A DNA stretch of 62,738 bases, filler included, from Bonamia ostreae (taxonomy: Eukaryota): NCBI GenBank assembly GCA_040357525.1. It is 12 parts of 12 records of this genome, joined end to end, with 100 filler letters (N's around TTAATTAATTAA, not from the genome) between each part and the next. Parts side by side here need not be neighbours in the genome. Positions count along the whole stretch, not along the records: positions 57,671 to 62,738 come from JBDODL010000231.1; 11 more parts are not named here. One strand, given 5' to 3'. Under the pieces are notes generated by a model, which made no database searches, was not told where the DNA came from, and saw nothing but the letters and a program-made list of their open reading frames with translations. Shown here in pieces: positions 1,117 to 62,738 of this stretch. Each line of letters opens with the position of its first letter. Within the stretch, counting starts at the first letter, position 1. A program made the translations under genes and the position numbers.

Positions 1117-2336
1117 TTATTCCCAAAACGGAGAAATCTTTCCTTTGTTGATATTGTGCACAAAATCAATTTCCGCCTTTTGTTACGTCTATTTCAAATA
1201 AAACAATTCCCAGATTCCCAAACAGAGCCTTATTGTCCATATTTCTAGCAGATGCGCACAGGCCGCTTAAACAATAACACGTGTGGTTGAGGTCGCACAT
1301 TCTTTATAATGAAATCTAAAACATCCCCGGTTTGTCTCGAAACCCGCCATTTATTGTGCACTGGCAAGCGCCTAGAATATACTTTGCAGCTGCGTCTCCG
1401 TCGAAACACCCATTCTTGGTTTTGTCCTCTGGTTTTAGAGTGCTTTGAATCAAAATAGGGATCGCTCCGACCCAAAAAGAGTAACATCCGTCCACCAGTT
1501 TGTTCGTCCTTCCTTGAAACCCCCCTTCCACCGTCATTTGTCGTTTCACTGCCCAATCCAGCAATTTTTCTAGAGCAATCGAATTTTGCTTTTCGAGAAT
1601 TATAAGTGTAGCCAGCCCGCAAAAAGAGTAGCCGCCATGGGCCTCATCGCCTGGTTCTCCGGCAATTCCGCCTTCGTACGTTTGGCAACTTGAAATTCAC
1701 AAGTTATAAGATTAACCTGGCGACCCATTCGGCAACCCCGTCGGTTAGTTCTGGCGTGAGCAAGCCTAATAACGCGGCGGTCGAAATGACCGTGTACGTT
1801 CCCCGCACGTCACATTCGCCTCCGATGTTGACCGCAAACGAACCATTGTCTTTTTTGAGCCGAAAAAAGAAGTCGAGGATAGACTTTCTGTCGATTAGCT
1901 CAAGGGCTTCGGGCGTACCGATTATCATCAGAGAACGAACAGCGACATAAGTAGTTGCTGCGTGGGCGCTTAAACCGCTGCCGCCCGAAAAACCCCCCGA
2001 TTTCGCACACTTCAATTTCCTTAAAAGCTGCACGCATCTTTACAAAAATGGGGGAAAGGACCTTGTTTTAACCGAGTTGTGTAGAAAGTTGAGCGATTGG
2101 AGTATATCAAGCGAATGCAAGCACCAATAGACAAACCAAGGCTTGCTCGATTCAATAATGGCCATGTTTCCACTAATGCCGTTTTGGAGGATGTCCAATA
2201 TCTTGTTTATATGAGGCGTTTTTGTCAAAAAGAAATGGTTTCTTTTGGAAATTGCGTTTATGACCTCGTTTTCGATTTTTTTCTGTTGAACGATGGTTAT
2301 ATGTTCTTCGGAGATTGATCCAGATTTTTCGGACAT
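1117..2336 (-). CDS. FNTB: Protein farnesyltransferase beta subunit
   Basis: Motifs SKPWFVYWCLHSL, GECDVRGTY, CQTYEGG, EAHGGY, GFQGRTNKLVDGCYSFWVG, GGFRDKPG, HTCYCLSGL. Four GT-AG introns of 21-28 nt give a continuous frame ending IDFVHNI...PFWE*. Confidence 0.92.
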
Positions 2337-2803
2337 TACGGCAATATAGTAATTTTTAAACTACAAAACTTATAAATTTTTGAACTACAAAACAAGAAAC
2401 TTAATTTCAAAACAAAATGTTGTTATTAAAAATAAAATTGGAATCCTAACAGAAACGTTATTTTAGTGATTTGTGTATCAACGGTAATTTAACAGAATTG
2501 TTATTTTAAGGCATTCGTTAATTTTGAGGTGAATGGGGCAACCTTATGAAGGAAGACATATAAACTGCTGATACGCACAAAAATTAAATTTTCAAAAAAA
2601 TATTGATATAGATTATATTCAACGCAAAAGGCAATATATAAATCGAATTAAAAATAGTAGAAATGTCCTGTACTCGTCCATGATAGTCTTTTTAGGACTG
2701 CGTTTCGACTCACAATAAAAAACATTTAATTACTTATATCATAATCATATAATAAAAGCTAATTTTTAAACGATGTTAGGTTAGAATTAATGGATCATGT
2801 GAA

Positions 2804-2934
2804 GCTGTGTCTGCGTTCAATGAATCAACTGCTCAAAGGACAATTCCTTTTGGCACGTCAGGCACAGCATAAAAACGGAACTCCCAGCTAGAGCAACGCC
2901 GCTGCGTTGGCTCTCGTTTATAGTTCCTACATTA
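2804..2934 (+). ncRNA. Box H/ACA snoRNA, predicted guide for the LSU rRNA site equivalent to yeast 25S Psi2944 (snR37-like target)
   Basis: Hairpin 1 (GCTGTGTCTG/CAGGCACAGC), H box ATAAAA at 2869-2874, hairpin 2 (GGAACT/AGTTCC; AGAGC-AACGC/GCGTT-GCTCT), ACA at 2929-2931. Pocket strands CCCAGCT and CGTTT pair with rRNA GAACG-U-G-AGCUGGG, 14 nt from the ACA. Confidence 0.8.
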
Positions 2935-3161
2935 CAACCAATTTTCCCCTAATAAATTTGTACTATATTTTGTGCTTGAGATTGTCGTCTGAACATCTTT
3001 AAATATCTTAAAAAAATCTTCGTTTTTACAAAACCTAAATTTTTACAAAAGCCAAGATTTTCTCAAATATAGCAGAACTCCCTGTAATAAAATTAGAACA
3101 CAAAAGTGTGTTTTTAGCATACATTATATCGATTCTACCTAAATTATTCTACAATTGCTCA

Positions 3162-5199
3162 ATGATTACCCGTTCAACATCTCAAAAAACTAAAAGCGAG
3201 AAAAGGTTCTAATTGTCTAATGCCAAAGTCCTAAAAAGCTAACAGAAAATGAATCCGCACCGACAAAAGACAGCAAAGACAAATTGCAGCGATTAGAAAT
3301 CGAGAAGATCGATTTGCTCGAAAAATCGCAAAACCTGAAAACGCGTCTCGATGAACTGGCCTCCGAGAACCAAAGACTGAAAAGAGCGGAAAGTGATTTC
3401 GAGAATTACAAAACGTTGAACGGTTTAAATTTTATATCATGATTCGAACAGAGAAGCAAAAATCCGAGCACCCGACTCTCCTGCAGAAAATAGTAAAACT
3501 GGAAAAATCGAACGCAGATCTGAAAGAGTCTCTGCGCAAATCGACCGAATCGACCCAAAGACTCGAAAAGTTGACAGAAAAGACCAAAACCGCAAACGAA
3601 AAATTTGAAGCGGAAATGGATCAAAAGAACAAAGAGATTTTCGCGCTGAAACAACGAATTATCGACGGAAAAGAAGAAATCACAAATCTAAAGAACGAAA
3701 GCGACTCTTCCTTCGACAAGATAAAATTCTTAGAAACTACCATCGCCGACGCCGAAAAACGCCTCGAGAAGACGCTAAATGATCTCGAAGCCAAAGAGAC
3801 CGAGTTAACGACACAAAACTCGCTCCTGCTTTCCAAAACCAACACGACGTCCGTCGAACTAAACAGAACCAAAATCGAACTGGAAGAGGCTCTCCAGCGA
3901 AATTCAAGTCTCGCTCTGCGCAACGAAGAACTTGTTTCCAATTTGAATTTTTGTTGATTTTGATGTCTTCGCTTTTTCGGATTTTCGGATTTTTTTTGAC
4001 AATTTTTGACAATTCCAATTTTATAGAAAAAAGAAGCCGCGGCCGCTTCCGCCGACCACAAATCAAAGCTGACGCAAAAAACGCGCTCTTTGGAGCAGAC
4101 GACGATAAGCCTCGGAATGAAGAACCAACAGATCGAACTGTACAAAGAATCGGCGCGGGCGTACGAAGAGCACATCGAAGCGCTGAGAGGCGAAACGGTC
4201 TCAAAGGAACATGAAATCGCAAAGATCGCGGAACGGCTGGCGGAGAAGGAAAACGCGTTCAACGAATTGCAGAAGAAAATCGCTTCTTCCGAGTTCTCAC
4301 AGAACGGCGCAAAACGCGAATTCTCGTTCTCGCAGACAATCGGTGAAATCGCTTCGGTGCTCAACCCGGGCTACAGCCCGAGGAAAATTCTGCGGGTGGA
4401 GGCTTCTCCGAACTTGAGTCCGAACGAGCTCTACATAAAATTCGTCCGAGTCTACGACTCGTACAAAGCGGCCTTCAAAGAGAAACTGGCGCTGGAAGAC
4501 GGCTTGAAGCGGTTCTCCAGATACGTCGAGTCCAAGTCGCCGAACTTGCGGCGCCAACAGGTGAAGTACGAGATGCTCCGGAAGTCGTATGGCAACATGT
4601 CCAACCGTCTGGCGGCGGAAAAGCGCAAAGGCTTTTCTCGCGAAGTGGAGCTGAAAGCCGTTCGAAGCGAACTGGAGAAAGCTTTGGCGAAGAAGACGGC
4701 GTACAAGAAAAGCACCCGAATTCTCAAGCAACAAGTCCAGTTACTCGTCGCCGAACAAGTCCCGGAAGAGCAAAACACGAACGGTCAAGAAAACGCGAAA
4801 GATCTGGAAAGTCCGAAAAATAAAAAAATAAGCGAACATGTCTTTGTTGACTTCAGAGAACTGCACGGGAAATATCTGAAACTGCTCAAAAAACACAACG
4901 AACGGGCGCAAAGAGAGAAGTTCGAAAGGGCCGATTTGGAGAAAGAGAACGGGCGATTGGTGGAAGAGTTTGCGCGCGCGCGGGGATCGTGGGAGGAGTC
5001 GGAAAGACGGCACCGGCGAGACATGAAAGAACTTGTTGAAAAAATAAGCACGTCCAAAAAACTGTTCAGACGCGATTCGGAACGTTTTGTTGTTAAAAAC
5101 TGTACTAGAAAATTATTAAAAATTTGCAATTTTAGTCAATATTAAATCTCTCCCCATTCCCTTTAATCTTTTTTGGGCATTCCGACGCTTCGTTTTCGA
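3162..5199 (+). CDS. TPR: Nucleoporin TPR/Mlp1-like coiled-coil protein (3' truncated by contig end)
   Basis: Long coiled coil. VESKSPNLRRQQVKYE, ILKQQVQLLVAE and ISEHVFVDFRELH resemble TPR blocks VEAKAPILKRQREEYE, LSQQIRVLL and ISQHLVSYRNIEELQ. Introns of 23, 29 and ~94 nt. Confidence 0.7.
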
Positions 5200-21690: not shown

Positions 21691-24600
21691 ATGTCTTTCC
21701 ATGGGAATTTTGCTCACATGGAATTAGCTTATCCGGAAAAAGACTCGAGCTCTGACGCGGAATCGCATTTGCCGAAAGAAAAGAACTCCGCTTTCGCACA
21801 GAGCGCGGAATCGCGGCCGAGTCTCCCTTCTTCGCGGTTCTCGGCTGCCAAGTTGAACGCGAGCGAGAGCAGAAGCGACGCCTTCGGCTACACCCCCTCA
21901 AACAGTTCCTCCTTCTAATCGCTAAAGCCAAAGCAGGAGAGCGCAGACTCAAGCCCAAATGGCTCAAGCAGATAAAGAAATGCCCCGACGACTTCATCAG
22001 CGCCTCTCACGGCAGCTTCCCGATGTCCAGGAGCGCGCTGAAGAGTGTGGGCACCGACTTTTGCGTGCACGTGGAGTGCATGCCCGCGGAGAAGGACCGA
22101 GTGCCCATCGTCGATTGCGGGAACTCGGCCATCGCGCGCTGCAGCAAATGCCGTGTCTACATCAACCCCTTCGCCGTCTTCGTCACCGGAAACAGGTTCT
22201 GAAGATGAACAAAAGCTGGATCTGCAACATGTGCCAAACGCACAACAAAGTGCCTCCTCAGTACAAAGGCTCGCTGGACAGCGAAGGAATGCGCTCGGAC
22301 CGCCTCAAAGTTCGTCTCCTAATTTTCCCAGCGGCCCGAACTCCACAGCTGCTACTACGAGTTCATCGCTTCAAACGAGTACTACTACATAGACAGGTCG
22401 CCGCAGTCGCCGATCTTCGTGTTTGTGATCGACGTTTCGACCGAAGCGGTCAAATCGGGTTTTCCTTTAAACGAGAAGGAATGTTGGCGCTGATAGGCGA
22501 AGCAGTCCCGCCGATGATCGAGCAGTTGGCCGGAGACAAGAGGGCGCAAGTCGCGGTTCTGACCTTCGACAGAGCGCTCCACTTCTACAAACTCGGGTCT
22601 GAAGGCTCTCCGCCGAAGGTCACCGTTTCCCCAGACTTGGCAAACCCCATCGCGCGGACGCCAGACAAGATGTTGGTGCGGCTCTCTGAAAACAAAAACG
22701 CGATTTGCGATTTGTTCAGAAGGTTTTTGTTGTTGCTCCAAACTGAGTTGTTCCATATTTTTGATGTCAATGTTTGAACAAATTTTTCGACCATCCAAAT
22801 TTTCGATTATATCGACTAAACTTTAATGTTCTCATCCAAATTTTTTGTACTACATTTTAATATCGGACCTGTTTCGAAAAACAAAGATTAATTTGTCTGC
22901 ATAAACATTAAATCAAGACATTCTAATATCGGATCCAACATTAAAGCTCTTTGTACATCGTTCTAAATTCTGTTTTAAACATTCTCCACAGAAACTTAAA
23001 ACAACAGAATTTAAAGCTTATAAAAAAGTCTGGAAAAAATACACGCGGAGACGAGAGACGGGGACTCTGCTCTCGGCGACGCAATGGCAACGGTTAAAAA
23101 CGTGTTTGCGCCGGTCGGCGGTAAAATCTGCGTTTTCTCCGCAGCGACACCGTCCGTCGGCGTCGGGCGGCTGCACGCCAAAATGGCCAAACCGAAAGAC
23201 AAAAAAGAGGTTAAAGACTCGTTGCGCGCTCATCTGATCGACAATTCGTCTTTCTACAGCGAGCACGCGCGTTCGATGAACGAGCGTTTCCTCTCCGTCG
23301 ACGTCTTCAAATTCGCCCTAAACCACAAACCGATGGGCTGCGGATCTTTAGGCGCTCTCTCCCATCTCACCGGCGGCAGCTTTAAGCTCTACGAGGTGAG
23401 GCCGGGAGTTGAGGAGGACTTTGGCTCCCTTTTGCAACGTTTGTCGGGCGACCTGCGGAACAGCCTGCTCCGGCCCATCGCGTGGGACGCCGTGATGCGC
23501 ATCCGCGCCAGCCACAAATTGCTGAAGAAGGAGCTCCTCGGAGACTTCGACTTAAAAAAGAGCGATCTCATGAGCTTTCCCGTTGCCGTGGGGCGCAAAA
23601 CCGTCTCGATGACCGTCAAGTTCGACGACGAAGAAGAAGACCGCATGATCTTCGACAACTTTGTTTTCTTCCAGTCGGCGCTGCTGTTTCAAAATCGAAT
23701 CTAAGGTTCACCTCGCAGAATGGCGACCGCAGGATAAGAGTCTACAATCTTGCGGTCCCGGTGACCAACTCCGCGCCGAAGGTGGCCCAATCGGTCAACA
23801 CCGCCGCTTTCCTCGCGTACATCGCCAAGATGGCGGTTTCGAAGTGCCTGGACATCGGTTTTGAAACCGGGAGAAACTTCATCCAGTCCGCGGGGATGGC
23901 TCTGATTCGCCGGTTGGCCCTCTCGACGGGCAAAGCCGTGCGGTCTGCAGAGGACCTCCCCCCGAAAGCTCGCGAGATGGCGGCTGCTCTGGTCGGCCTG
24001 CTAAAAAGCGAGGCCTTCTGCGACGCGGCGAAGGACCCCGTGCCGACCCGCTTTTCGGAGGAGTCGCGGGTGTTCGTGTCGCCGATCAGGCGCTTCCAGC
24101 GGCTGTGCTGTCTGCGCGGAGCGCCGGTGGCCTCGGCGCAGCTGTTCGCGCGGCCTTTGGTTTTCCCTCTGTTGGACGTGTTGCTTTCGGAGGATTACCC
24201 CGAAGATCCCGATAAAGTAGTCGACGTGATAAATGCAAACGCGATGAAGCTCAATTCCTTGGCTTTGGTAGCAAGCGGAGTTTTGGTGATAAGTGATGGG
24301 CAGAGACTTATCTTCCGTGTGAAAAAGGACTCGGATTCCGAGATTCTCGAGGCGTTGTTTGGAGTTTCCAGAATCCCCGCCGATGGCAGCGTTTTTATAA
24401 TTTGTTTTAACGGTTTAAAAATGATCTTTGACATTATAATTCTTTGAACAATGTGAAAATTTTGCGAACATTTTATTTTTAATCGCAAATGTTCAAAACT
24501 TTGTTGTTTGAATAAAANNNNNNNNNNNNNNNNNNNNNNNNNNNNNNNNNNNNNNNNNNNNNNNNNNNNNNNNNNNNNNNNNNNNNNNNNNNNNNNNNNN

Positions 24601-43397: not shown

Positions 43398-46300
43398 ATG
43401 TCAGAAAAGATCTTGGTGGCGGTAAGAACACGGCCGATGATAAAAGAGGAAAAAGGAGAAAACGGAGAATCGCCTTGGACAGCAGAGCAAAATTACATTC
43501 TCAACCGCCGCGAAAACAAGAAATACATTTTCGGTCAAATTTGTGACTTTTAGACAAAGTTTTCGGCGAAAACACAACTACGCAATTTGTTTATAACTCG
43601 ATCGCCAAAGATATCGTCCGATCCGCTTTAGAAGGAAAGAACGGTAAATTTCAAAAATAAATTTGCAAAAATCAAAATTTACAAAAATTTTTAATTTAAC
43701 GCTAGGAACCATTTTCGCTTATGGCCAGACATCGAGCGGCAAAACTTACACGATAAGAGGCACTCCGGAAAATCACGGGATTACGCCGTTAGTGCTGAAA
43801 GACATTTTCAACAAAATAGCAAAGGTTGAATTCTACAATCGAAGAACATCTCGAGAGAGTTCCTGTTAAGCGTCAGTTACTTGGAAATTTACAACGAGAC
43901 CATTATCGATCTGCTGAACCCGGAAATCAAAGAACTGAAGATTTTCCAAGAAATAAATGTTGCGATTATCAAATTTCTAAATTAGGGCGGCGTCCTGGTC
44001 GACTGCTTAACCAAAAAAGTGATCGTGGACATTAAAGAAGGGATGACGCAATTCGACAACGGCGAAAGTTTTTTTGGCGACGTCAGGTTTTAGGCATTTC
44101 GGGGCCACGAAAATGAATGAGGAATCGAGTAGAAGCCACACTATTTTTCAATTGCACATCGAAAGCCGACTTGTAAAATGACTTTTCTTGATTTAGCCAT
44201 TTTTGTAAAATTGACTTTTGTTAAAATTTCCAAAATTGTCGGAATAATAAATGGAAAATTTCGAAAATAGAAAGAGAACAAGGACAAATCGATAAGATAT
44301 TCGACGTTGAATTTAGTCGATTTGGCGGGTTCCGAAAGACTGCGGAAAAACAAAGAAAGCGGAATAAGGTCGAGCGAAAGTGCTCATATCAACAAAAGTC
44401 TTCTCACGCTCGAAAGAGTGATCCACTCGTTAAGCGAAAATAAGTTTTTTGGGCTTTAGAAATTTTTCGTTAAGCGAAATTNNNNNNNNNNNNNNNNNNN
44501 NNNNNNNNNNNNNNNNNNNNNNNNNNNNNNNNNNNNNNNNNNNNNNNNNNNNNNNNNNNNNNNNNNNNNNNNNNNNNNNNNTGTCACTTTGAAATTTCAA
44601 AAATAAAACAAATTTCATAAATTGAAAATTTTTTGACAAAACAGAAATTTGTCGCACATTCCCTTTCGAGACTCAAAATTGACTCGGATTTTGCAGCCAG
44701 CTTTAGGCGGAAATTCGAGAACAGTTGTAATCGTCACGATAACTCCGTCAAGCGCATTCGTCGACGAGACGAAAAAGTCGCTTTCGTTTGCGAACAGAGC
44801 CGCAAATGTGACGAACCGCGTTTTCGTGAACGAAATCGTCGACGACGCGACCAAAATACAGTTTCTCAGGGAAAAAGTAGCCCAACTCGAAAACGAACTT
44901 GATTCGAACAACGCAGAAAACGAACAACTCGATTCCAAAAAAAGCGAAACGGAAAACATAAAAAAAGAACTTGAAACGTTGAAAATGAAATTGGAGATCA
45001 GCAAACGCTCCGAAGAAGCGTGGAAAGAACGCTTCAACAAACTTTTCGGATTCGAAAACAACTCCAAAAAATTGTCAAACAACAACAAAAATATTGCGAA
45101 GAGTTTGATAAAAAGGAAAATGGACCGAAGAAAAACTCTCGGCGTTCTGGGAAACAAAAACTTCAAATTTGAACAAACCGAGAAAAAACAAAATTTGTCA
45201 AATAATTTCAAATTCGACAAAAACGCAAATTTGCCGAATAAAAAATTTGCCAAAAATTTGACGGCGAACAAAACGTTAATAGAATCGATGAGACTCAAAT
45301 TGTCGGAAGCGAATACAAAAAACGATTTGCTGGAAAAGAAAATTTTTGAAATGGGAAACCAAATCGAGAATTTTGAGAAAACCAAAATTAATTTGGAAAA
45401 CAAAATTGAGTTTGAAAAAAAGGAGAGAATGGCGGAAATTGTAAAAGCAGAAGAAAAGTTTGAAGCAAAAGTTGGCGATTTTAAGGAAAAAATGGATTTT
45501 CTGAAAAGGAAAAATCAAAATTTGGAAGAAAAACAGTTTCGCTATTTTTAATAAAGCTTTACTAAAAAAATAAACAAAATTTGTCATAAAAGATTAAAAA
45601 TGAAAATTTCAGAAAAAATTTTAATAAAAAAGATTCGAATTGAAGGAAAGTTTGATATCATCAAGGAACAGGTTAAAAGAAAAAGAAAATGAAATCGAAA
45701 CGAAAAATCGAAAAATCGAAAAAAATTTGGAAAAAATGGCTAAAATCGAATTCAAATTTAATCAAAAAAGAAGCGATTTAATCAAAAAAGTGACAAATCT
45801 CGAGGAAAACAATGTTTTTCTAAAAGAACAGAGCAATAAGAAAAGTTTGAAACAAATTGAGGAATTACAAAATTTGTTAAAAGAACGCGAATCTGTTTAT
45901 TAAAAAACGCAATTTTCAAAATTTTTCGATTTTGCCAATTTTTAAAAATTAGAAAATAACAGAACTTTCGAAAAGTTTGATATGCGAAGAGGACAAAATG
46001 GCAAAATTGGGGCGCAGTTTGAACGAGATGAACGATGTTATTTCCTTTTAAAAATTTAGTCGTCGCAAAGAGATAGAAATATTATCGTCGAGTTAAAAAG
46101 CCGTTTGAAGAATTCTAAACAAATCGAAGTCGAGTACAAAAATTTACATGAGAATTTGAAGTACCTTAAAAATCAGTTTATTTTTGACTAATTATTTAAT
46201 GAATTTTCGAATCGACAAAATTTTTATTATTTCGCGATTTTTGATTTTGCAAAATAAATTCGCAATTAAAAAAATTAGACAAAAAGAGAAAACAGAAAAA

Positions 46301-47420: not shown

Positions 47421-50400
47421 TCAAAAAGAAATAATTTGCGCATAAAAACGAGGGAAAACAGATTTCAAAACCGCAAAAATCAGCTTAATCATCAAATTCT
47501 TAATAAAATTGATCAGATCGAGCACAGGACACATCGACTTTTTGTTCCGCTCCACTTCCGTTACATGGTCTGACGTCGATTCGGTACTGGTATCGGACAA
47601 GACAGAGCTGAACACACTATCGCTTTTAAAAGAGACGAGCACCCAAGTGTTCGTGAGCGCTTTGTACATGATATAAAGCGTTATTCCGTGCATCAATATC
47701 GGGATGAGATATTGCGCAAACTTGTTGAAACCGTTTTGAAAGATTTCTTTCAATACTTGCCAAAAGCCAAAACTGCCGAGCAATCCGGGCGGCAGCGGAG
47801 GACCTTTCAATTTGGCCATTGTTTTCGCGTCGAGAGAAAATCCTGTTGTTTTCTCGGCGCTTTCCGGGATTATCGGGCGGAAATGCTTTGCCTTGTTGTA
47901 TCTGTCTTTCGTCATTCTTGTTTTTATTTCGTCTTTTTCGTTTTGGTTAAAATTGGGAATCGCGTTGATTTGATTAAAAATGGCGCCCAAAAGCAATAAT
48001 TAAGTTGCGATGGAAAAAAGTTGCGATGGAAACAAAAACAATAATTAAGATGGCTTTCCTCGATTTTGTTGTTAGCGACAACAGAGACGTCGAATGTGTT
48101 GTCGAGTTGGTTCTTCATTTTGGCCACTTTGCCAAAATTCGGGACGCAGAAGCAGATTTTGATCGGATTCCAACTGCGCTGGAACTTTCCGTCGTAGAAA
48201 CAACAGCAGACGAAATTTGCGAAGAGGTTCGCAACGCGAGTGTCGTCGTAGACGGGGTTCAAATCCTCCGTGCACGGACAGAAGATGTATTTTACGAATT
48301 TTGCCGACGTGTCGCCATCGTTTATTTGGTCCACTTTTGTTCAACGGGTCGCACCAATAAAAGTTTTTATTTTAACGCGATTCAAAACCTTTTTTGTCGA
48401 AACAGCAACAGAGTCTGTTGCAGAGAGTGGCGCAAGCGTTGTCGTCATGCTGCCTCCCGCGCGGACTCGCGACCAAAGGACAACACAATCTTTCGAAAGA
48501 CGGCCACACAAACGTTTCGACTTTCGGTTTAATTAGCCAAAACAATAGCAAACTAAATAAAACCGTCCATTTCGTCGAAGAAGTTCGAGTTCCTCATCCA
48601 TCCGGACGAATAGCCGATCGCGTACGACGCCAGAATCAAAGCGACGCCGAGACAGACCAGAATAAGAGAGATCTTCGTGTACAGGATGCCGTACCCGGGC
48701 AGGATCCGCAGGAACATGATGACCAAGTCGTAGTTTTGGCTGAAAATGTACTCCGTGACGTAGATGAAGCCCAGATAAGCGAGCAAGAGGATTTCGATGA
48801 TGAACAGCGTCATCACGAACACGGGACGCGACACCTCCAAATACCGCTCCGCCGCGTAGAAGTAGACGGTCACGATGCCGCCGATTGTGATCAGCATGCC
48901 GAGGAGGACCATGAAGTAATAGATGGTGGAGCCTTGCTTCATTTTGCTGACGGAGCTGGTCGACGCGGAGTCCTGCATCGCCTCCGACTTTTTGGTGAAG
49001 GTGTAGATGTTCGTGAAGACGTCTTGGAGATTGCGGATGGAGCGGATGACTTTGAAGAGCATTTGCAGCAGCTCGAACAGTTTTTTCATCAACATGGACG
49101 CCACGCCGACGCCGAACCCGATCAAGACGAGAATTGCGACGAGGATGGTGACGCCGATCAGCACAATGCAAAAGTACCCGCCGGTCACTTTGTTGAGCGC
49201 GTTGGCGATGTCGGAGAAGCCCGACAGGAACGCCATCACCACGTCCTTGATCGCCTTCATCATGTCCAGGAAGGCCTTGAAGCTTTTTTCGAGCGTCAAG
49301 TACGAGTAGAAGTAGCTTTGCATGTAGGAGTAAGCGGAGAGGGCGAACCCGATCAGGACGAGCAGGATTCCGCCGATGCTGAGAATGGCGGCGATCCCGC
49401 CCAGCGAAAACATCCATTTTATTACGAAGAAGGTGAGCGAAATCAGAGTCGTGGAATGGTAGAACAGCATTAACGCAAAATTGAAGGACATGAAGATGGC
49501 CAGGTACAGCCACAAGACTTTCTTAAGGTGACAAGGCAAACCATCGCACCGCCCCAATTCCAACCTTCGGCGTAGAAGCCGTCGCTGAAGTTCCAGGCGC
49601 TCGGTTTGGGCGCGGCGGAGGAGACCATCGCGTTGGAGAGCAAGTCGATGTGCATTTCGAGGCAAAAGTAGGCGACGAACAGGCCGAGGTAGAAGAAGGA
49701 CCTGTAAATGTAGGAATTGCGCATTCTTCTGAAGAGGTTGTAGAGCATGTCGGCCATGTAGATGAGCAATGTGACCACCGGCATAATCAGACTAACGTTG
49801 TCGCGCCAATCTGTGTGGAAAGTGTTTTCAGCCATTTTGAAATCCGCTAGGAACTGGTTCGGTGTTAGAAATCAAACGAAGAGGAAGTAGAAGACGAAGA
49901 CAGTGTTCGAGATGAAGACGAAGACGGTGAAAACGGAGAGCTTGCGTTTTTCCGCGCCTTTGAACTCGTACGACGACTCCCAGTCGGCCAGGAAACTGTT
50001 CGCGACGGCATCTCTATTCCCGCTCATCGTCCCCACTTTGTTCATCCACAGAGCGACCACGTAAAACGGAATCGCGAGCAGAAAAATATACTCTAACACT
50101 ATCAAAGCCAAGTTGTCCGGTTCGCCTGCTTTGGAGAGCGTGGTCAGCGTATGGAAGGACAGGTCTTCTGGATAAACCTTTGGCCATTGTTTATGAAAAC
50201 GATGACGCACAGAACGGTGAGCCTCATCACGTGCACGTTTATGCCGAATTTGGAGGCGAAGCGCGAAAAAAGCATTCTCGACCTGTAATCGTTCAACAAT
50301 TTGAGCGCGTAGGATAAGTTGGCGAAGTCGAAGAGGAGGTAAAGAACGGCCAAGAAATTGGCGAAGACGGAGATGTGCTTGAAAAATATCAGCGATCCCC

Positions 50401-57670: not shown

Positions 57671-59148
57671 TTGTTCGATAAAAAAAATTTGTTCGTTAAA
57701 AAATTTTGTTATCACTAATTAGCCAAAAATGCGAAAAATAGCCAAATAGAAATTCAAGAACATTCCTCGTTTGTTTGAGCGTCAATCGCTTTTTTGAAAT
57801 AATTGGATTGCATGATCGTTCTCACCGGTTCATACAAAGCGTCTCTATTCAAAGAGTCGATGTCGGAACCCGAAAATCCCTTAAATTCTTTTAAAAACTT
57901 CTGTTCTCCCGGCCAATTGTTCAAAGTCCTCTTCGCAAAGCTCATTTGGCGATTTTGCGATGAAGCTTCTAAACATCGCTTTCCGGGCCTCTTCATCGGG
58001 AAGAGGAATATAAACACGTTTTTCGAACCTTCTTCTTATAGCGGGGTCCAATTCCCACGGCATGTTGGTCGCGCCGAGCACCAAGACTTTTTCGTTGCTT
58101 TTGCCGACGCCTTGCATTTGGACCAGAAATTCGGTTTTGATTCGTCTCGTCGAATCGTTTTCGCCGTCAGTCCTGTTCCCGCAAAGCGAGTCGATTTCGT
58201 CGATAAATATGATCGCCGGGGACGATTTTCGGGCCTTAAAATCTGGATTGATTACGCTTTCGAAAAGGGCTCTGACGAGCTTTTCCGATTCGCCGAGGTA
58301 CTTCGAAACCAAATCTGAAGAAGACACGGAGAAGAAAGTCGAGTTGTTGGCTTCGGTCGCTACCGCTTTCGCGAGGAAACTTTTGCCGGTGCCGGGAGGA
58401 CCGTACAAAAGGATCCCTTTCCAAGGCTTTCGGTTTCCGGTGAAGAGCTGCGGAAATTTGATCGGGAGAATTACGGCTTCTTTCAACATATTTTTGGCTG
58501 CTTCCAGACCGGCTACGTCAGTCCACTATTTTTAATCGATTTCAGATTACATTTTTAATAAAGCTTGTTACGGTGATTGCAATTATAAGATTAAATCTTA
58601 ATAATCAAAGCTACAAGCTTTTTAGATTTTTAGCTAATTAAATAGTTTGTGACAACATGTTTTCCGACAAAAGTGGCAAATAAGCTGTAAAAGTGTTAGC
58701 GATATTACGTAATTGAAAATCCGAAACTTTAATGTTGGGCTTTTCTATAACAATTGCGCTGGAAAGCGCCTTTTCCATTTTGTTTCGTTCGTCGTTTGCT
58801 TCGTCTTTGTCGCTCAAGTCGTTGTTTGTGTTGCTTTCCTAAACTTAAATTAAAGAACGTTGTTGTGCTGCTGCTTCATCTTGGACATGTTCGCTTTCAA
58901 ATATTCAGCGCGTTCAATATATTTGTTTGCCTTCTCCGTCAACGTTTGTTTCAGCTTTTTGTTTTTTTCGTATTGTGCGCCTTTCACGAGATGTTGAGTG
59001 CCATAGACATACTATTTTGTATATAAAAACGTTTTTCAGCGCCAGTTCATATTCGCCCTTTAAAATTCAATATGAAAACTTTGTCGTCTGCTTCAACTGC
59101 AGTCTTAATGGCCTCAATCCCTTTATTGATAAAATTGCTTCCGCTCAT
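57671..59148 (-). CDS. VPS4: ESCRT AAA ATPase Vps4 (3' truncated)
   Basis: MIT domain exons, [68 protein letters not shown]. Confidence 0.95.
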
Positions 59149-59319
59149 TATTTCAAATTTTAATATAGTCTTTATAGATCTTTTGAATATAATTGGCTAT
59201 TCTCGATATTAATGGCGTTCTACTTAGTTTAGCGTTCGATGTTAGTAGCTAAACTTAAATTATTTGTATAAAATCTTCAGAGCGTTAACTTTCGAGCATT
59301 CGATTTGCGCAATATAAAA

Positions 59320-59400
59320 ACGACAATGGCGCGATGGCTCAGTCGTTCGAACTAAGCGCATGTTTTGTGAGTGCATGGGTTCGAATCTTGGTGTTGTCGT
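59320..59400 (+). ncRNA. tRNA-like element with Pol III A and B boxes, identity unknown
   Basis: Terminal stem (AA)ACGACAA/TTGTCGT(TT), A box TGGCGCGATGG at 59327-59337, B box GGTTCGAATC at 59378-59387. No canonical anticodon arm or variable region. Confidence 0.5.
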
Positions 59401-59727
59401 TTCCAAACTGTTTTCAAAGCGGGAGAAGTAGTTTTATCTGTGACTAAGGTTGCCCCTAAAACTTGAGACCTTGAATGTCTGCACTAAACAATGGACAGCC
59501 CCAAATTCCAACTTTAATGTAAATGTTATCCAAATTTTTTAAATGGCGAATGATGTCTTAGCATTTTTATTGAATGGCCAGATTAGTCAAATTTCATATT
59601 ATTTTTCGTATAAAAAACTTTGTACAAAATAACATCACAATTATTATTTTCTATTCGCCAGAAATCAAAATTTTGTGGTGCTAAGATTAAAGTTTACACC
59701 ACAAAATTACTTAAAATTTCATTAAAA

Positions 59728-62700
59728 ATGTCTTCCAGCAAAATAAAACCTTTACATACCTTAAAGCCATTTGATAACAGCATCGATATTCTTCACAAAA
59801 AGTTGGTTAAGAATCGCCATGAAGCGATTTGCAAATGGATAAACTTGTTACTAGATCGCGATGTAGTGAGCGAATCCTGCATGTCCAAAGCATTTCATGA
59901 TTTTACTCTTTATTACGAAATTCTTGAGAAAATAACAAATTTTAGTTTTGACCAAAAAATCCTTTTGGGACTAGAAAAATTATGTTTTTTAATTAACCCG
60001 TTTTGCAGATGAATTTTGCGATAATTTGAATTTAATCGGCATTGGTACAGGTCCTCCACTAAACAAACGTTTCTTTCCTTGCCTTTTACTCCAAACATTT
60101 TTGAAAATCAAAATATTTACAATCAACTTTCATCTTTAAAGAAGGACTACTTGATGGCGACAAAAAACATATTTACATAATTTTATATCGTATTCTGGAT
60201 TACTTTTCGCGATTCGGTTTCAGTTCCAAAAGATCGTCAGTTTACATAGCCCCAAAACAATATATCCAGTGTTCACCACATAACGACCATTTCACGTGGT
60301 TAGAAGAATTATTAGGAAAGAGTCTTAACCGTAGTAAAATTTTAGTAGAAAACGCAAAGACTGTAATTTGCGACTGCGTAGACAAAATTGTAACAAGATA
60401 TCACTTCCGGAAAAACAAAATTAGCGACTCCCTTCAAGACAAAACTTCTTTACAGAAAGTAGAGCGCAACTTCAAAATTTTAGAGACTGAATTAAAAGTA
60501 CCTCACGTCTTCGATACTCGATCACTGCTTAAAGAAGAAGTACATTCTTCTTTGATACTGATATTCATCAGCATTTTGAGAATACTCTCGACTCAAGAGG
60601 AGGAAAAAATCCCAGAATCTCCGTCATCTAAACACTTAAACGCGTTCTCCAGGTTGACCGAAGAGAAAAAGTCTTATTCCTTCAATAAACCGCCAAAATG
60701 TGTCGTAAGAATTGAAGACTTGAAAAAATGGACGAACAGAGATGTCTTAAACTGGTTAAGTTCCATCAGTAACTTCAATTACAACACTTTCTATTCCAAG
60801 TTCCACAAAAAACGGGTCGACGGCAAAATTCTTGCCCGATTCGGTGTTTCCGACGCCATTGACATGATCAGTGACGCGGAACAAAGAAATATATTTAAAA
60901 GAGCTTTAAGTAATCTCCGACTCAAAAACGGTTAAATATTTTAAATCGATAGAAACGGAATTTGAATTGAAGTCTAAGTTGTTCATTGAAACAACAGAAG
61001 TTGTTATCGGCCCTGTCATCGGACTGGTAACAAGTACTTCTGTCAGAATACTATTTGAATTTTACAACGCATTTCTAGTGTACGTTTTTATCTGTTGCAA
61101 TTAAATAGCAAAAGTACCCGATAACGGTGAACCTTCAATCAAACTTAGATAATGTGTCAATAACGAAAAGAGTGAATTCCAACAAACCGGTTGTTTTTGT
61201 ATTCCAGAACCTGAAACCGGGAACACAGTACGCTGTTACCATCGAAGTTTATTTGAATCCAAACAAAAGGGCAAAAGAACGATAAGTAGCAGATTTGTCA
61301 CGGACGACGAATCACCGGGATCCAGTCTGAGATTTGTTATGGTAAGCTGCAACGAAGTTTTGATAATTTTTCAATAAACGTAAAGGTACGTGTAACAAAG
61401 AGTTTGGAGGCGACAAAACCAGAATTAAATTTGTGGCGAAAAATAGCGATTTATGCGAAAGAACGTCGCATTGATCTCATTGTTCATGCGGGTGACCAAG
61501 TTAATTTTCGAATTCATTAAAATCGTGTCATTGGTACCAAGTTAATTTAGCTGTCACTTAAAATTAATAAAATATGATTGTTTTGATTACTTTACAAAAT
61601 ATTATTGTTGTATCAAAAAATTTGAAAAGATATATGGTGATTCTGACATTTGGTTTGGATCCCGGAAAAGTGCGTATGCTAAAAGTTTAGACATGTTGAA
61701 AAATGTTCAACCGATTTATTGGATCGAATATAAAGAAGAGATCAAAAATTTGTACAGAGAAGTCTACAGAGAAACTTGGAAACAAACAGCGCAAAGGATA
61801 GCAATGGCGAACGCAAGCAACTTGATGATATCAGACGATCATGAAATCGCGGATGATTGGGGAGAACAGCCGAAACACAGAGACAAAAAATCATTGGACT
61901 ATTTTGTTGGAGTCTGCGCACACGAAGTTTATAGAGAATATCAAGTGCAATTAAGATCGGATCTGGAAAGTATGAAATTGAAAGGAAAAGATCATTATTG
62001 TTACATTTACAAAAAGATCGCATTTGTGTTCATCGAAATGCACACTGGTAACACCATTTATTATGTTTTTATATTTAATAATTTTTTCGTAAATGTTGAT
62101 AACTACATTGTTTACAAAAGACAACAAATCAATAAAAATAATTTTATAAATGTTGGTAACAACAAATAGAAAGAAGAAGACGAACACAGATTTTTAGGAG
62201 ACAATCAATGGCGTGATTTAGAAGTTTGGTTTGACGAGGAAAATGGAGTTTTAAAAGATATCCGTTGTCTAATGCTGGTTTCACCAATTCCACTCGTTTA
62301 TGTACCAACTGCAACTGCCACGAAAGCTTCTCAATTTGAAAAAGGATTGACACAACATTGGTCTTACGGTGAGAAGAGATATGAACAAAAGAAAATGCTA
62401 GACATGTTGTTCAAATGGAAATTTTTTAAAAAAGGAAGAGAACTGATTATTCTTGGCGGTTATTTTAATGACGAAATTTATAAAATTTTGTAATCAATTT
62501 CCATTTTATTCAATTAATTGCCAAATTTTGTGATCTTTTATTCAAACAATTGTTAAATTTTGTGATCAATTTGCATTTTATTCAATTTTTATTCAAACAA
62601 TTGTTAAATTTTATCAACAATTTGCATTCTATTTCTATTCAAACAATTGTTAAATTTTGTGATCAATTTGCATTTTATTCAATTTTTATTCAAACAATTG

Positions 62701-62738
62701 TTAAATTTTGTGATCAATTTGCATTTTATTCAATTTTT
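59728..62738 (+). CDS. CH1-CH2-SAM-PhoD-type phosphatase fusion protein (3' truncated)
   Basis: CH1 AICKWINLLL...LIGIGTEGLLDGDKKHIYIILYRILDYF; CH2 NFKILETELKVPHVFD; SAM WTNRDVLNWL...FHKKRVDGKIL; PhoD GPVIGLVT, NLKPGTQY, VSCN, HAGDQ-IYGD, DDHEIADDWG, FLGDNQW. Confidence 0.8.
62500..62738. repeat. Intronic tandem repeat
   Basis: TTTTTATTCAAACAATTGTTAAATTTTGTGATCAATTTGCATTTTATTCAA units repeated about 4 times to the window end. Confidence 0.85.

Follow-up and report, generated by a model that had tools for sequence, protein, structure and literature searches.

A gene on the plus strand of Bonamia ostreae DNA is predicted to place a PhoD-type phosphatase behind a long helical, SAM-bearing N-terminal extension. 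The gene lies at the end of a 62,738-nucleotide stretch (assembly GCA_040357525.1; 12 parts of 12 records joined by filler), referred to here as the window, and extends from an ATG at 59728 to a donor GT at 62459 with at least nine exons (Table 1). Under GT-AG splicing, the model comprises 760 codons without a stop and is interrupted by the window end. As a profile of homologues runs about 180 positions past this end, the gene is truncated by the window, within an intron. The window is AT-rich (GC content of 0.24-0.53 per 2 kb) and is read with the standard genetic code. A ciliate-type reading of stop codons was rejected because the standard code leaves long conserved open reading frames (ORFs) uninterrupted. 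Taken as a whole, the locus is likely best explained as one gene for a non-secreted PhoD enzyme preceded by a 364-residue addition of helical segments, probably two calponin homology (CH)-like folds, and a SAM domain.

Judged by sequence, the downstream part of the gene is a genuine member of the PhoD-type phosphatase family and a predicted enzyme. One exon alone matches the Pfam models PhoD_2 (E = 3.5e-5, 22.6 bits at a cut-off of 22) and PhoD (E = 4.6e-5, 23.1 bits at a cut-off of 27). When the largest exon of this part was used as the query in an exhaustive HMMER search, 298 cluster representatives passed E <= 1e-3, of which 134 also passed E <= 1e-10. Nearest among the homologues are two short fragments, P0001 and P0005, which are 69% and 63% identical across the region matched. 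The remaining ones mostly have lengths of 400-1000 residues and mostly share 30-50% identity in the region matched. Pfam PhoD is found at E <= 0.001 in 100 of 106 short homologues and in 42 of 44 longer ones. A profile with a length of 652 positions, built from 45 homologues, is colinear with six ORF pieces that lie in three frames and within 60931-62460. The spliced model aligns to this profile in a single alignment covering profile positions 78-470 (419 bits, E = 2e-129), and the alignment sets in at residue 365 of the model, immediately past a candidate 22-nucleotide intron that separates the SAM exon from the PhoD part. A second family profile (A2), made from the largest exon and 30 homologues, matched only two entries when compared with the Protein Data Bank (PDB), both of them PhoD-type alkaline phosphatases (9uya, E = 5.5e-13; 2yeq, E = 7.3e-12). 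PhoD structures were reached only through the family profile, as phmmer with the single PhoD exon against the PDB yielded only a designed protein at E = 0.1; a word-index search with the PhoD exon, set to longer lengths, returned no relatives. A beta-sandwich is located ahead of the catalytic domain, aligned over profile positions 78-160 and matching fn3 with an E-value of 1.3e-3 at 61109-61282. The Pfam model DUF7800 gave no match on the separate exons. A first-pass annotation of this DNA had proposed an FN3-like/PhoD region with GDQIYGD and DDHE motifs, and this proposal is borne out by the 419-bit profile alignment, the PhoD_2 and PhoD matches and the fn3 match. The SCN, GDQ/IYGD and DDHE motifs are all kept and sit where they had been placed, with GDQ ending at 61499 and IYGD opening at 61630. 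We take the SCN, GD..Y, DDHE and GD.H motifs to represent the metal ligands of PhoD enzymes.

The N-terminal 364 residues probably include a SAM domain directly ahead of the PhoD part. Pfam and PDB searches of the N-terminus were run on single-exon ORFs. Exon 3 lies in an open frame of 276 codons (60105-60935), with a chance of such a length of about 2e-9 per frame start. A first CH-like segment extends into this exon and ends near 60206; a second one, also helical, follows at roughly 60222-60611, and a linker then leads to the SAM region. In the PDB sequence search, all five matches of exon 3 are SAM domains and fall on query residues 193-262: liprin-beta-1 (E = 0.012), STIM1 (0.061), two forms of SHANK2 (0.17 and 0.3) and a RING-finger-36-like protein (0.97). 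Four SAM-clan Pfam families likewise fall on ORF residues 204-258 with E-values of 0.047-0.14. Their scores weigh against the assignment, as all are below the respective cut-off (SAM_1, 14.4 bits against 23; SAM_2, 12.8 against 20.5; SAM_Ste50p, 14.4 against 21; SAM_PNT, 13.3 against 24). The SAM domain of the first-pass annotation can consequently be retained as probable at about 60723-60917 on the strength of the PDB matches, with the Pfam models falling short of confirming it.

The encoded protein is predicted to be non-secreted, a property it would share with most of its family. No N-terminal hydrophobic segment is apparent, with the best 10-residue Kyte-Doolittle mean in the first 40 residues reaching 0.55 on this crude scale, and the most hydrophobic 19-residue stretch corresponds to the conserved GPVIG strand. 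The lack of a signal peptide suggested at first pass is therefore upheld. A crude hydrophobicity test likewise finds no N-terminal hydrophobic stretch in 84 of 107 full-length-like homologues, which indicates that the family is largely non-secreted and that a cytosolic location is a family trait and not a novelty of this gene. The contrast originally drawn with typically secreted PhoD enzymes thus holds for the protein itself but was overstated, since relatives behave in the same way and some carry fused modules of cytosolic type, for example C2 or EF-hand. Pfam scans of 150 homologue representatives (27 with N-terminal room, 17 other long and 106 short) identified a core of DUF7800 and PhoD/PhoD_2. 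Accessory domains among the 44 longer or N-extended homologues are C2 (six), EF-hand (one), a four-repeat ion channel (one) and PPR (one), and neither CH nor SAM domains were detected by Pfam in any of the 150 representatives. The impression that the architecture is an unfamiliar one is thereby strengthened, in that it is not common among relatives. A literature search combining PhoD, calponin homology and SAM returned no such protein among the matches listed, a search for DUF7800 found no occurrence, and one for PhoD-like and C2 gave nothing relevant among the matches listed. By comparison of these sequences, the new part would be the SAM/CH-like front end, an architecture unusual for the enzyme family, and the gene would represent a lineage-specific domain fusion inside a known family of enzymes. 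One of the homologues, P0113 (2372 amino acids), carries DUF7800 and PhoD domains at the C-terminus, behind a four-repeat cation channel of the voltage-gated type (Ion_trans E = 1.2e-177, GPHH), and represents either a genuine channel-phosphatase fusion or a merged gene model.

Tiny introns of 20-31 nucleotides are ordinary in this window, in agreement with the premise of the first-pass annotation. Three are located inside the PhoD part at 61084-61108 (25 nucleotides, or 31 if starting at 61078), 61247-61269 (23 nucleotides) and 61357-61385 (29 nucleotides), and all three are required because the homologue alignment is seamless across them. A further one, a 20-nucleotide GTT...AAG intron at 43825-43844, is found on the plus strand in a kinesin gene elsewhere in the window. 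Its excision restores the motor-domain sequence, with the flanks on two ORF pieces covering Pfam profile positions 68-118 and 120-158, and it is among the shortest spliceosomal introns. The kinesin intron, the three tiny introns inside the PhoD part and the candidate 22-nucleotide SAM-PhoD intron all begin with GTT. An EHD gene in the window has a 45-nucleotide intron, and the longer introns of the PhoD gene measure 91 (60051-60141), 105 (62065-62169) and 130 nucleotides (61500-61629). Overall, intron sizes in the window look bimodal, with groups at about 20-45 and about 90-200 nucleotides. In-frame stops within tiny introns are known from some genomes that possess such introns.

The helical and SAM-bearing front end and the PhoD part most probably form a single fused reading frame. 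Removing the 22 nucleotides from 60931 to 60952 (GTT...TAG) joins frame 0 to frame 1, confirming the frame arithmetic of the GT-AG intron proposed at first pass. We infer that this intron is the one used and prefer it over a 43-nucleotide alternative (60910-60952) that also keeps the frame but appears less likely. The donor runs straight into an in-frame TAA at 60933-60935 (G/GTTAA, the slash marking the splice site), so that retention of the intron would stop the protein just after the SAM domain. Reading this TAA as glutamine was also tried and rejected, as a TGA follows a few codons later and the PhoD frame is never reached. The same stop could instead mark the end of a separate gene. The locus would then hold two adjacent genes, a helical and SAM-bearing protein ending at the TAA and a PhoD protein started from an undetected upstream mini-exon, from an internal promoter or by trans-splicing at the AG at 60952. 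Several observations favor this arrangement or weaken the case for fusion. The 276-codon ORF ends in frame 0 at the end of the SAM domain and the first PhoD ORF piece opens in a different frame at 60910. Frame-joining GT-AG pairs are easy to find, making frame restoration alone weak evidence, and a frame-restoring pair within the 25-nucleotide overlap zone is not rare by chance. Counting such pairs naively over the whole window was not informative (1699 for GT...AG, compared to 1800-3335 for six control dinucleotide pairs). The SAM-PhoD junction is predicted from genomic sequence, and a search of metagenome contigs for related loci with alignment A1 gave 591 pattern matches of which 0 were confirmed. 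Among homologues, CH and SAM domains are missing as described above, and an N-terminal extension of at least 300 residues ahead of the sandwich is present in only two of 95. The PhoD side of the junction nevertheless argues for fusion. Residues 341-476 of the spliced model contain no methionine, so that neither the first ~110 residues of the PhoD part nor the beta-sandwich as a whole has its own initiator. As homologues begin about five residues before the sandwich (median extension of 5 residues in 95 homologues), a PhoD gene standing by itself would require a start codon at just the position where no ATG is present. The stretch from the TAA to the conserved GPVIG motif measures just ~60 nucleotides, too short to accommodate both a 3' untranslated region and a promoter, and neither AATAAA nor ATTAAA was found in 60900-61099. 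The candidate 22-nucleotide intron also resembles the local tiny-intron type, with a size inside the range of the supported examples, and the alignment to homologues sets in directly behind it. The methionine-free start of the PhoD part makes a single fused gene the best reading, and two separate genes are quite improbable. Of the single reading frame originally proposed, the joining of the PhoD part to a SAM-bearing extension is thus the portion most likely to stand, while the CH1-CH2 label attached to it does not.

Within such a single gene, the ~250 helical residues preceding the SAM domain would, on balance, adopt a CH-like fold. Language-model searches returned HOOK_N/CH clusters for exon 1 (scores of 0.86-0.88) and CH clusters for exon 3 (0.77), values that lie below the 0.9 line of the tool and serve as leads only. 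The ten best family-bearing look-alikes agree on the CH clan in each of the two segment searches, and the convergence of two non-overlapping segments on one clan tips the balance toward a CH-like fold. We also take the spacing of hydrophobic and aromatic residues, judged by eye, to fit this fold. The same region could alternatively be no CH domain at all, or belong to a CH type without actin binding, either HOOK-like or a new kind of helical module, in which case the protein would not be actin-tethered; this is a serious possibility that falls somewhat short of probable. The best exon 1 look-alike is a HOOK-domain cluster (0.88) with HOOK_N in 21% of its members; HOOK_N is a member of the CH clan, and to our knowledge HOOK_N-type domains are not actin binders. 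Residues of the actinin-type signature are, in our estimation, not evident in the N-terminus. Further results count against a CH assignment. No family of the Pfam CH clan (CH, CAMSAP_CH, CH_2 and HOOK_N) reaches E <= 1 on the ORF of exon 1 or on the 276-residue ORF, the first CH-like domain being split over three exons and scanned in pieces only. In the PDB, phmmer at E <= 10 gives zero matches for exon 1, only SAM domains for exon 3 and no CH chain. The similarity between the two CH-like halves is not significant, its score being reached by 61 of 1000 shuffles, and no internal repeat signal is observed. Single-sequence AlphaFold models are unusably poor, with pLDDT values of 36.9 for exon 3 and 45.5 for the second CH-like segment, and a Foldseek search with the latter model gave no match at E <= 0.001 and five unrelated rows at E-values of 5.7-9.7. 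Word-index searches with the CH-like/SAM exon, set to longer or near lengths, found no relatives, and phmmer of exons 1 and 3 against the 150 PhoD homologues found nothing, with a best E-value of 0.81. The exon 1/2 model is itself ambiguous. An alternative donor at 59945 would lengthen the first intron from 25 to 64 nucleotides, and the 60009-60050 mini-exon, which lacks independent support, can be skipped in frame by removal of 59945-60141. The tandem CH motifs of the first-pass annotation are accordingly not confirmed by Pfam, PDB sequence matches or a usable AlphaFold fold, and its more specific label of an alpha-actinin/spectrin-type actin-binding CH1-CH2 module has no alignment behind it and sits poorly with the HOOK_N-type lead for exon 1. 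A further question concerns the catalytic domain, which might have lost or changed its activity and act as a binding module. In the near-invariant D.R block of the family, which follows the DDHE region and corresponds to IEMHTG here (62032-62049), glutamate replaces the aspartate present in 28 of 29 homologues and histidine replaces the arginine present in 29 of 29, and the GGDVH motif of the family is expected beyond the window end. The SCN, GDQ.Y and DDHE motifs are intact, however, and the largest exon keeps 22 of 26 highly conserved columns. As E.H in place of D.R is a conservative change that is common to this protein and the closest fragments P0001 and P0005, it suggests a working subclade variant, and we consider an inactive or altered domain unlikely.

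Comparison with known systems places the fusion inside an uncharacterised eukaryotic family. The DUF7800 and PhoD family (PF25077 with PF09423/PF19050) has the same sandwich and catalytic core, the largest exon being 29-41% identical, and the motifs GPV.G.VT, SCN, GDQVY.D, YR.TW and DDHE.RDDWG are common to both. Members of this family usually start at the sandwich and have D.R, whereas the B. ostreae protein possesses the 364-residue extension and E/H. Bacillus subtilis PhoD (2yeq) and the secreted alkaline phosphatase 9uya have the same layout of an N-terminal sandwich and a metallophosphoesterase domain. PhoD is exported through the Tat pathway and contains an Fe/Ca center. In contrast to these secreted bacterial enzymes, the B. 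ostreae protein is predicted to lack a signal peptide and has a 364-residue extension of cytosolic type. The SAM domains of the scaffold proteins liprin-beta-1, STIM1 and SHANK2 have a W-T...V..WL opening and a DG..L block in common with the SAM region, although the E-values of the PDB matches are only 0.012-0.97. For CH-clan domains (CH, PF00307; HOOK_N, PF19047), the likeness of exons 1 and 3 is one of language-model scores, with no profile or sequence match. SHIP2 is a SAM-bearing phosphatase with targeting modules and offers an analogy only, in that a catalytic phosphatase domain is placed by interaction modules; its catalytic fold and domain order are unrelated. Variable gene architecture has also been described for the eukaryotic PhoD proteins BdPhoD of Babesia and PtPhos5/6 of Phaeodactylum, which carry signal peptides and/or a transmembrane helix and are found in the ER, apicoplast or plastid endomembranes (PMC10907312). 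Unlike BdPhoD and PtPhos5/6 as portrayed there, the B. ostreae protein has no predicted signal peptide or transmembrane helix.

Table 1. Features of the predicted SAM-PhoD gene and the supporting observations (positions in the window).
Feature	Coordinates	Strand	Content and basis
Exon 1	59728..59983	+	From ATG; carries first CH-like helical segment; ORF and in-frame GT-AG options
Exon 2	60009..60050	+	42-nt mini-exon between introns 59984-60008 and 60051-60141; in-frame GT-AG joins only
Exon 3	60142..60930	+	276-codon open frame
Probable SAM domain	60723..60917	+	Sub-cut-off Pfam SAM-clan scores and PDB sequence matches
Candidate intron	60931..60952	+	22 nt, GT...AG, between SAM exon and PhoD part; frame arithmetic
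Exon 4	60953..61083	+	19-residue linker and start of beta-sandwich; GPVIG 61009-61032; no Met; profile 63-111, E = 1.7e-10
Exon 5	61109..61246	+	Remainder of FN3-like/DUF7800-type beta-sandwich; profile 114-159, E = 3.7e-10; fn3 E = 1.3e-3
Exon 6	61270..61356	+	SCN motif (Cys) 61342-61356; profile 161-189; seamless alignment across junction
Exon 7	61386..61499	+	GDQ at its end; profile 187-222, E = 7.4e-8
Exon 8	61630..62064	+	IYGD, YRETW block, DDHE (61831-61863), IEMHTG (62032-62049); profile 222-373, E = 2e-51; Pfam PhoD_2/PhoD
Exon 9	62170..62458	+	Last exon in window; stops one motif before family GGDVH; profile 378-471, E = 1.5e-27
Start of next intron	62459..62738	+	GT at 62459; contains tandem repeat

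The surroundings of the gene contain further genes and sequence features. The tandem repeat in the last intron spans 62536-62738 on the plus strand and reaches the window end, with a period of 51, 4.1 copies and 87% matches (Tandem Repeats Finder). An Rfam search over 59000-62738 gave nothing at E <= 0.1. Upstream, a divergent minus-strand gene at 57884-59149, with its ATG at about 59149, encodes an MIT and AAA ATPase (MIT, E = 2.6e-7 at 58853-59011; AAA, E = 1.9e-41 at 57884-58525) that is VPS4-, spastin- or katanin-like. The 578-nucleotide intergenic region between the divergent genes includes a tRNA-like stretch on the plus strand (59327-59400) with A-box-like and B-box-like motifs. This stretch received no ARAGORN call and no Rfam match at E <= 0.1 and may represent a degenerate tRNA or a tRNA-derived repeat. 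In addition to the MIT and AAA ATPase and the kinesin, other ORFs in the window encode an ABC-2 transporter, Sec23/24, EHD-type and RING proteins and a mitochondrial carrier. Two GC-rich islands are present at 22001-24000 (0.53) and 48001-50000 (0.50), compared to about 0.3 around them, and the latter contains long overlapping ORFs on both strands (48376-49470 on the plus and 48556-49791 on the minus strand) with no Pfam match.

Based on these predictions, a mode of action can be proposed for the fused protein. The catalytic domain would act on phosphomonoesters or phosphodiesters, hydrolysing them at a metal center of PhoD type formed with the SCN cysteine, GDQ.Y and DDHE. The N-terminal module would be non-catalytic and may anchor the enzyme to a scaffold of the cytoskeleton or cell cortex, with binding to actin or microtubules as a conceivable contact, and the SAM domain may self-associate or contact another SAM protein. 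In its full form, a PhoD metallophosphoesterase tethered to the cytoskeleton or cortex via a tandem CH-like module and clustered by its SAM domain, the proposal is tentative and on present grounds rather doubtful. Retention of the 22-nucleotide intron could additionally yield a scaffold-only isoform. No general principle is changed by the locus. Enzymes commonly acquire domains by shuffling, and the label of actin binding is unproven. It represents a compact case in which introns of 20-30 nucleotides, with an in-frame stop at a donor, would join functional modules. PhoD enzymes have been studied as secreted or endomembrane phosphate scavengers, while no role has been assigned to a large eukaryotic branch that lacks export signals and whose fusion partners differ between lineages. 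Should the fusion be genuine, the N-terminal module would provide a handle on the site of action of this branch, usable as a bait and as a localisation reporter. Together with the relatives fused to C2 domains, an EF-hand or a channel, it would then indicate that the DUF7800 and PhoD family acts in the cytosol on localised substrates and not in phosphate scavenging, with membrane phosphodiesters or phosphoproteins as possible substrates under spatial control.

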